Origin: Escherichia coli
Lineage (GTDB): Bacteria > Pseudomonadota > Gammaproteobacteria > Enterobacterales > Enterobacteriaceae
DNA length: 64,000 nucleotides
NCBI RefSeq assembly: GCF_044324785.1
Contig: NZ_CP172127.1
Strand: one strand, 5' to 3'
Below are positions 60,770 to 61,167 of this stretch, piece by piece. Position numbers and translations under genes: made by a program. Positions within the stretch are counted from its first letter, which is position 1. Each line of letters begins with the position of its first letter. Below the pieces are notes generated by a model that made no database searches, was not told where the DNA came from, and was given only the letters and a program-made list of their open reading frames with translations.

Positions 60770-61146
60770 GCTACTACGATGACCTCCGGGCCGGCGATGA
60801 GGAGATGATTCTGGAGTGGGGACGGCCCGTTAAATTACGCGGTAAAACCGCCCCCATTATCGCTATTTTCAACGAGCCTTACGCGCGCGTTGACGTTCCT
60901 CACGCTGGTTTTATTACCGGTACAGTAACGAGCCTGACGGCGCTCTCAGACGACGTCGCTGGCATTGTTGCGCGTGACGTCGTCCAGGTTCCAAAGCAGC
61001 GCAGTATCGCTGATGACGGCTCAGTTACCTGGTCTTGTTGGACCGATTACGTTGTTAAAGAGCCTCAACCTGATGGCACAGGGCTCACGAATATTTTTTT
61101 AGAGCCTCACACGTCCAGCGAAAACAGCGAGTATTCAAAATACTAA
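60766..61146 (+). CDS. putative head completion/head-tail connector protein (FII position)
   Basis: 126-aa ORF overlapping FI-like stop; positional call. Confidence 0.4.
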   Translation: MSYYDDLRAGDEEMILEWGRPVKLRGKTAPIIAIFNEPYARVDVPHAGFITGTVTSLTALSDDVAGIVARDVVQVPKQRSIADDGSVTWSCWTDYVVKEPQPDGTGLTNIFLEPHTSSENSEYSKY

Positions 61147-61167
61147 GTGGGACCGCGGTCCCACTTA
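61144..61167. repeat. 24-bp perfect palindrome TAAGTGGGACCGCGGTCCCACTTA at head/tail module junction
   Basis: read directly; overlaps stop codon of upstream gene, lies just before RBS of next gene. Confidence 0.8.

Follow-up and report, generated by a model that had tools for sequence, protein, structure and literature searches.

The analysed stretch of Escherichia coli DNA (64,000 nucleotides, referred to below as the window) carries a lambdoid prophage, in which lambda-type head genes (terminase, W, portal, protease C, decoration protein and capsid E) lie 5' of an FI-like packaging gene. The features at and around the junction studied here are the following:

46903 to 47574, plus strand: Q-like antiterminator gene of the same prophage (PHROG 304, E=9.4e-76).
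59250 to 59269, plus strand: companion hairpin after the head decoration gene, followed by T7; terminator-like, U-tract score -4.95.
60322 to 60339, plus strand: companion hairpin after the major capsid gene, AAGAGCC-GAAA-GGCTCTT, followed by T6; terminator-like, score -4.73.
60356 to 60769: FI-like packaging protein (Pfam Packaging_FI; PHROG 92).
60766 to 61146, plus strand: FII-like head-tail joining (head closure Hc1) protein, 126 aa (Pfam PF05354 Phage_attach, E=6e-11; PHROG 82, E=1.2e-23).
61144 to 61167, plus strand: perfect palindrome of 24 nt, as RNA a 10-bp stem with a 4-nt loop, its first 3 nt being the TAA of the upstream gene.
61147 to 61164, plus strand: conserved core GTGGGACCGCGGTCCCAC of 18 nt, common to relatives down to 48% protein identity.
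61168 to 61173, plus strand: Shine-Dalgarno-like AGGGGG, directly 3' of the hairpin arm and 4 nt upstream of the GTG start.
61178 to 61858, plus strand: tail completion / Neck1 protein, lambda Z-like, 226 aa, GTG start (PHROG 27, E=2.6e-41).
61855 onward: unnamed 178-aa gene, then baseplate V and gp25/W.

The palindrome, TAAGTGGGACCGCGGTCCCACTTA, read directly from the window, equals its own reverse complement over the whole 24 nt, as the initial annotation had claimed, and both its overlap with the upstream stop codon and its place just ahead of the downstream ribosome-binding site, also claimed there, were confirmed from the sequence. The stop codon TAA (61144-61146) of the 126-aa ORF (60766-61146) forms the 5' end of the palindrome, the last base of which abuts the ribosome-binding site of the Z-like tail-completion gene with its Shine-Dalgarno-like run GGGGG (61169-61173; AAGGGGG from 61167); no start codon precedes the GTG at 61178 in the downstream frame (226-aa ORF, 61178-61858). 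The gap between the two genes, which are on the same strand, measures 31 nt and is filled by the hairpin; the junction thus runs from the stop codon through the hairpin and the ribosome-binding site to the start codon, each element adjoining the next. Folded alone as RNA, the hairpin has a 10-bp stem, a 4-nt loop and an energy of -15.7 kcal/mol. Among the perfect palindromes of the 64-kb window it ranks second in length; of 200 simulations of the window under a first-order Markov model only one produced a palindrome of 24 bp, and the 20-nt core pattern, with up to three mismatches allowed, occurs once in it (0.02 expected). No Rfam family matched the palindrome at E up to 10, and no report of this element was found in full-text searches of the literature.

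In phage lambda gene FII is followed by gene Z. The Z-like protein of the window itself gave no direct match in Pfam or PDB sequence searches, but its homologue P0035 (39% identical) carries PF06763 Minor_tail_Z, and the gene pair therefore matches the FII-Z order of lambda. In an annotated relative (L001) only three gaps of more than 30 nt exist from the terminase to the sheath genes, the other genes of the operon overlapping or abutting, and in the window each of these three gaps contains a GC-rich hairpin (59250-59269, 60322-60339 and the palindrome). The post-capsid hairpin has the stop codon in its stem base and a GNRA loop (GAAA, or GCAA in L022), and it is kept in all relatives examined, including those without the palindrome. 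The FI-like gene between them is hypervariable at about 60500-60610, with dense substitutions and indels between prophages that are otherwise 90-97% identical. Farther upstream, two overlapping, IS-like transposase ORFs (PHROG 151/157) occupy 47891-49164 between the Q-like gene and the holin; with such an element after the Q-like gene the late operon may be cut off from its promoter, and the prophage may thus be defective.

Of 5426 complete E. coli genomes, 445 carry the locus, with identities of 90-97.5%; ST131 strains are among them, and JJ1886 and EC958 are two of the carriers. Four deposited Escherichia phages have it as well. IMG/VR, metagenomes, one species-representative genome (E. whittamii, the single relative in that scan) and contigs reached via protein homologues supplied further relatives; relatives of the L018 type were not found among the complete E. 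coli genomes. Within the Escherichia clade the changes affect the loop (GC, TC, GT, GA) or the closing pair, or amount to a G-U wobble, as in the following alleles:

Window-type allele: centre GC.
ST131-type allele, the commonest variant: centre TC.
L016 allele: centre GT.
L227 allele: centre GA, with a G·A mismatch in the stem.
L006 allele: C to A at the closing pair.
L008 / ETEC1738 allele: G-U wobble and a 1-nt deletion at the stem base.

At the distant loci, for which identities are those of the downstream-gene protein to that of the window, the junction reads as follows:

L229, 77%: core identical, GTGGGACCGCGGTCCCAC, flanks differ.
L230, 76%: core identical, new outer pairs AGG/CCT.
L231, 75%, and L020, 73%: degenerate hairpins.
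L018, 73%: GTGGGCCCGCGGGCCCAC, with C-G in place of the A-U pair.
L024 / L232, 65-67%: a different hairpin, GCGGGC-TT-GCCCGC, then T8 (canonical terminator).
L233, 63%: GTGGGCCCGCGGGCCCAC.
L234, 60%: core identical, flanks differ.
L236, 59%: a different hairpin, CGGGTCCGCCCG.
L235, 57%: ATGGGCCCGCGGGCCCAC.
L237, 48%: GTGGGCCCGCGGGCCCA.
L238, 46%, and L239, 43%: no hairpin.

At L024 the Z-like frame (1468-1899) stops after 143 codons though tblastn matches all 226 residues; the early stop is a frameshift or a sequencing error, and the near-identical junction of L232 has an intact gene of 227 aa.

The conserved unit is thus the inner 18 nt, GTGGG[A/C]CCGCGG[T/G]CCCAC, directly 3' of the stop codon in the relatives, while the outer TAA/TTA pairing that makes up the 24 nt is confined to the Escherichia clade. 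The conservation in related prophages, on which the initial annotation had proposed to judge the element, proved considerable: 13 of the 19 sampled lineages have the 18-nt core, the most distant of them with a flanking protein at 48% identity, and three have lost it. It keeps 16-18 of its 18 bases where the flanking proteins are only 48-63% identical, and the 60-nt window that contains it has a mean identity of 73% across distant relatives, the second-highest of 27 windows scanned, though it is non-coding; the neighbouring 60-nt windows mostly show 55-66%. The ribosome-binding site lies 0-7 nt 3' of the hairpin in all relatives.

The three hairpin-less lineages (L054, L028 and L022) nest among hairpin-bearing ones. 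The metagenomic L054 carries a clean deletion of 22 bp between TAAG direct repeats, L028 (E. whittamii) has a deletion with the same boundaries, and in L022 exactly the 18-nt core is missing, with no repeat involved; in L006, L020, L227 and L231 the hairpin is degenerate. Absence of the palindrome from otherwise identical prophages, which the initial annotation had named, together with a lack of effect on expression, as counting against a role, was therefore encountered as far as the sequence goes, in L054, which at 2.1% divergence from the ST131 type lacks exactly the palindrome. No empty site was present in any of the 445 locus-bearing complete E. coli genomes, the three candidate matches being the L008-type allele. 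The hairpin is old, mostly conserved and structurally kept, yet dispensable.

Pairing was evaluated on 15 distinct variants against 500 shuffles, a control that ignores the relatedness among the sequences: 89.3% of the cells were paired (reached by none of the 500 shuffles), four pairs were changed on both sides (reached by 9 of 500) and the covariation score was 0.205 compared with 0.105 in shuffles (reached by none of 500). When the partner columns were slid, pairing collapsed to 25-54%. The pair formed by core position 6 shows covariation, with A-U exchanged for C-G in four variants, and the two-sided changes include the new outer AGG/CCT pairs of L230; on the protein tree at least two A-U/C-G switches or patch exchanges are implied. 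The hairpin-forming element between stop codon and ribosome-binding site that the initial annotation had described is, judged by its fold and its conserved pairing, genuine. Symmetric covariation is equally expected of a DNA palindrome, and the hand count of G-U against A-C mismatches (5 vs 3) does not settle which strand matters. The core sequence, its CCGCGG centre included, is more conserved than structure alone requires, which could indicate sequence-specific recognition or patch exchange by recombination; between L018 and L020, with flanks 2% apart, the junction differs at about 8 positions.

The element is most likely an ordinary intercistronic hairpin of phage late operons, that is, one of a known kind, and its specific role as a stem-loop in the late mRNA, at a boundary of mRNA stability or processing, can be given an even chance. 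The stability or processing hairpin offered as one option in the initial annotation is compatible with the compensatory changes and with the replacement of the hairpin by others at the same site. The replacement hairpins have better U-tracts on the plus strand than on the minus strand (-5.18 vs -1.63 in L024/L232 and -2.82 vs -1.05 in L236), which points to the sense RNA as the functional strand. Since the prophage has a Q-type antiterminator, late transcription would be expected to read through internal hairpins, and the palindrome would then encode a stable stem-loop within a long late mRNA; rather than terminating transcription of the sense RNA, the hairpin would act after it. It might block 3'-to-5' exonucleases and so protect the upstream head-gene segment, or it might, as a 5' stem-loop, shield the downstream tail-gene segment after endonuclease cleavage. 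Being folded back, the hairpin would leave only a short distance between the stop codon and the ribosome-binding site that follows, and translation of the downstream gene should therefore be little disturbed, which would explain the tolerance of both insertion and clean deletion. Some points stand against this explanation. The FII-like protein is needed in few copies per virion, so that protecting the FII 3' end alone is not obviously useful, and the hairpin was lost in three lineages and is degenerate in four more loci. If the inferred role is true, the tightly packed late operon would set the ratios of head and tail components by hairpins, with no extra promoters. The locus also offers a natural set of alleles, namely the perfect hairpin, loop variants, a compensatory variant, a clean deletion and a terminator replacement, which makes the function of an intercistronic hairpin directly testable in a prophage present in 445 of 5426 complete E. 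coli genomes.

REP hairpins, one of the known systems to which the element comes close, are intercistronic mRNA-stabilising stem-loops in E. coli operons, for example between malE and malF. Like these, the palindrome forms a stable GC-rich stem-loop in a short intercistronic gap of a polycistronic transcript, has no U-tract and sits where unequal amounts of the upstream and downstream products are plausible; unlike these, it is single-copy in the window and lacks the REP consensus, and its core is tied to one gene junction across the phage lineage. REP hairpins are linked to mRNA turnover (PMC3479197), and in phage SPP1 stem-loops delimit late gene clusters (PMC6316719). With the intrinsic terminators of phage late operons (the post-capsid hairpin; SPP1, PMC6316719) the palindrome shares a GC-rich hairpin directly after a stop codon, and L024/L232 hold a canonical hairpin with T8 at the same site. 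It differs from them in that the core hairpin is without a U-tract on the coding strand. The RNase III processing sites of phage T7 lie between genes and comprise about two helical turns (roughly 20 bp) of double-stranded RNA. The palindrome resembles them in lying between genes of a long phage transcript, as an RNA structure by which stable segments could be set off, but its stem of 10-12 bp is about half the substrate length and has no internal-loop architecture; the conserved stem (7-12 bp) falls short of two helical turns, and the longer alternative stem described below is not conserved.

It is unlikely that the palindrome is instead near-neutral, self-maintaining DNA with no role in expression, having originated by a template-switch error or as a mini-insertion, tolerated because stop codon and ribosome-binding site were preserved, and owing its perfection to templated correction of quasi-palindromes and not to selection. 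Short palindromes and quasi-palindromes are subject to templated correction and to deletion between flanking direct repeats, and the perfection of the palindrome and its precise 22-bp loss between TAAG repeats are in line with such instability. Clean loss occurred at least three times (22 bp in L054 and L028, the 18-nt core in L022), and the degenerate copies of L006, L020, L227 and L231 speak in the same direction. Relative to the empty sites of L054 and L028 the insertion is flanked by a TA/TAA/TAAG repeat, a possible target-site duplication of a miniature palindromic (MITE-like) insertion element, but none is seen relative to L022; the left arm resembles the sequence 3' of the hairpin (TAAGTGGGACCG vs TAAGGGGGAACCG), and copies of the 18-mer core in unrelated surroundings are present in other viral contigs. 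Against all this stands the long-term retention, which speaks for selection in addition to whatever mutational process is involved: 16-18 of the 18 core bases are kept where the flanking proteins share 48-63% identity, a distance at which neutral DNA would have been eroded, and the 60-nt core window is among the most conserved of the region. That two lineages have other hairpins in its place, and that an empty site is lacking in the 445 locus-bearing complete E. coli genomes, also counts against neutrality.

The recurrence of the core elsewhere bears on another reading, considered quite unlikely, by which the core is a sequence-specific element recognised by a factor, of phage or host, that binds RNA or DNA, or else a very small palindromic cassette moving between phages. 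If true, it would explain the conservation of core and loop where the flanking proteins are about 50% identical, as well as the L018/L020 junction difference and the presence of the core, sometimes in multiple copies, between genes of unrelated viral contigs. The core was found in 36 distinct IMG/VR contexts, this prophage family included, compared with about 10 for the matched control. With a control pattern matched in composition the total was comparable (85 stretches vs 84), the AT-type core being only about 3-fold enriched. No clear repeat family or mobile element emerged from this comparison, and the 64-kb window has a single copy. As observed in these contigs, the core GTGGGACC-NN-GGTCCCAC is mostly intergenic and has unrelated flanks; seven copies occur in one 19-kb viral contig and three exact ones in another, the two multi-copy contigs being those of L077-L079 (IMGVR_UViG_3300036791_000702) and L115-L117 (IMGVR_UViG_2740892492_000002).

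A translational-coupling switch was also considered, in which a longer stem of 61144-61162 with 61171-61189 hides the ribosome-binding site and the GTG, and the ribosome finishing the FII-like gene melts it, so that the Z-like protein is made only upon translation of the FII-like gene. In the window this alternative is the minimum-energy fold (-25.3 vs -19.3 kcal/mol over 61144-61200) with the start codon fully paired, as it also is in L015, L045 and L008, and the gene overlap in distant relatives is consistent with coupling as the older arrangement. It is, however, not the minimum-energy fold in the ST131 type (TC centre), in L016, L018 and L020, or in L227, L230, L231, L233, L234, L235 and L237; pairing of the alternative stem (90.8%) is no better than that in shuffles (90.6%; reached by 233 of 500), with no covariation signal, and the local hairpin would presumably form first during transcription. 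The switch is accordingly held to be improbable. Two recoding events were rejected outright: a ribosome bypass or hop in the style of T4 gene 60, the take-off codon UAC having no in-frame landing site that continues the protein, and a frameshift or read-through fusion of both genes, the downstream frame having a stop at 61166-61168, within the palindrome.

As to termination, the coding strand provides the GC-rich stem-loop of an intrinsic (Rho-independent) terminator with its 10-bp stem, but 3' of the stem it has no U-tract (tail UUAAGGGGGAACC, score -1.71). The plus-strand U-tract scores of core-bearing relatives range from -0.56 to -2.16, compared with -4.73 and -4.95 for the upstream hairpins. 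A sense-strand intrinsic terminator was rejected on the missing U-tract, which sets the palindrome apart from the two terminator-like hairpins upstream in the same operon. There remains an intrinsic terminator for leftward (antisense) transcription, stopping tail-side transcripts before they enter the head genes, to which we assign a low probability. This hairpin was the first minus-strand site of the terminator scan, a U-rich run follows it on the minus strand (tail UUAGUAUUUUG in the window, score -2.48), and the minus-strand scores of -2.0 to -3.0 in most core-bearing relatives are better than those of the plus strand. These values are nevertheless far weaker than those of the operon's canonical terminators (-4.7, -4.95), they fall to -0.7 and -1.4 in L237 and L018, and the U-richness of the minus strand stems from conserved C-terminal codons of the upstream gene, while the replacement hairpins of L232 and L236 are oriented for the plus strand. 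Nor is a source of antisense transcripts apparent: promoter-like sites in the region are below chance (3 vs 6.6 expected), and the sole nearby one on the minus strand (61392-61365) is not conserved in L015, L016 and L018. An antisense RNA starting from 61392-61365 was rejected, its promoter hexamers not being conserved in hairpin-bearing relatives.

Finally, a function as duplex DNA, either as the binding site of a dimeric protein or as a conserved recombination linker for module exchange, appears very unlikely. The perfect 24-bp palindrome has the dyad symmetry of a palindromic operator, and conservation of the core sequence and its CCGCGG centre is deep, but the loop variants of the commonest alleles break the central symmetry; the element is single-copy and mid-operon, with no promoter or candidate binding protein nearby, and hairpins of other sequence occupy the same spot in L232 and L236. 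The protein-binding site suggested in the initial annotation thus gained no positive support, the palindrome being single-copy in the window and the relatives having different hairpin sequences. For the recombination variant, the left edge of one recombinant tract falls within 61084-61339, a stretch that includes the palindrome, and the junction patch differs between L018 and L020 with flanks only 2% apart. Against it, pairwise max-chi-square breakpoints cluster at 60600-60700, 61800-61900 and 62300-62500, none falling in 61100-61200, and the gene adjacency is ancient rather than a seam. The seam between lambda-like and P2-like modules that the initial annotation had placed here did not hold up, the Z-like gene belonging to the lambda Z / Neck1 family (PHROG 27; homologue with Minor_tail_Z). 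Jilinvirus phages have the same order of head closure, Neck1, unnamed gene, baseplate V and baseplate W, with the first two genes overlapping by 14 nt and no spacer, and gene content among the relatives changes only after the next gene downstream of the Z-like gene. A module seam or recombination hotspot at the palindrome was accordingly rejected, with breakpoints clustering elsewhere and the FII-Z adjacency being ancient.

Several other features of the window were recorded. A recently exchanged tract at 61084-62139 covers the Z-like gene and half of the next gene: it has 4 mismatches over 1056 nt relative to L002, L005 and L049, and its flanks show about 8% mismatches up to 61083 and about 4.5% from 62140. 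Another perfect palindrome, GACACGCTGCAGCGTGTC of 18 bp, is located at 55188-55205 within the terminase large-subunit gene. The longest palindrome of the window is a perfect one of 36 bp at 1329-1364, and a near-perfect one of 30 bp lies about 225 bp away at 1104-1133. Both are followed by a similar stretch (..CTATCAAT..GATATTTTCACGGAA.TACCA.TTAATAC), and together they look like a two-copy direct repeat unit carrying palindromes.
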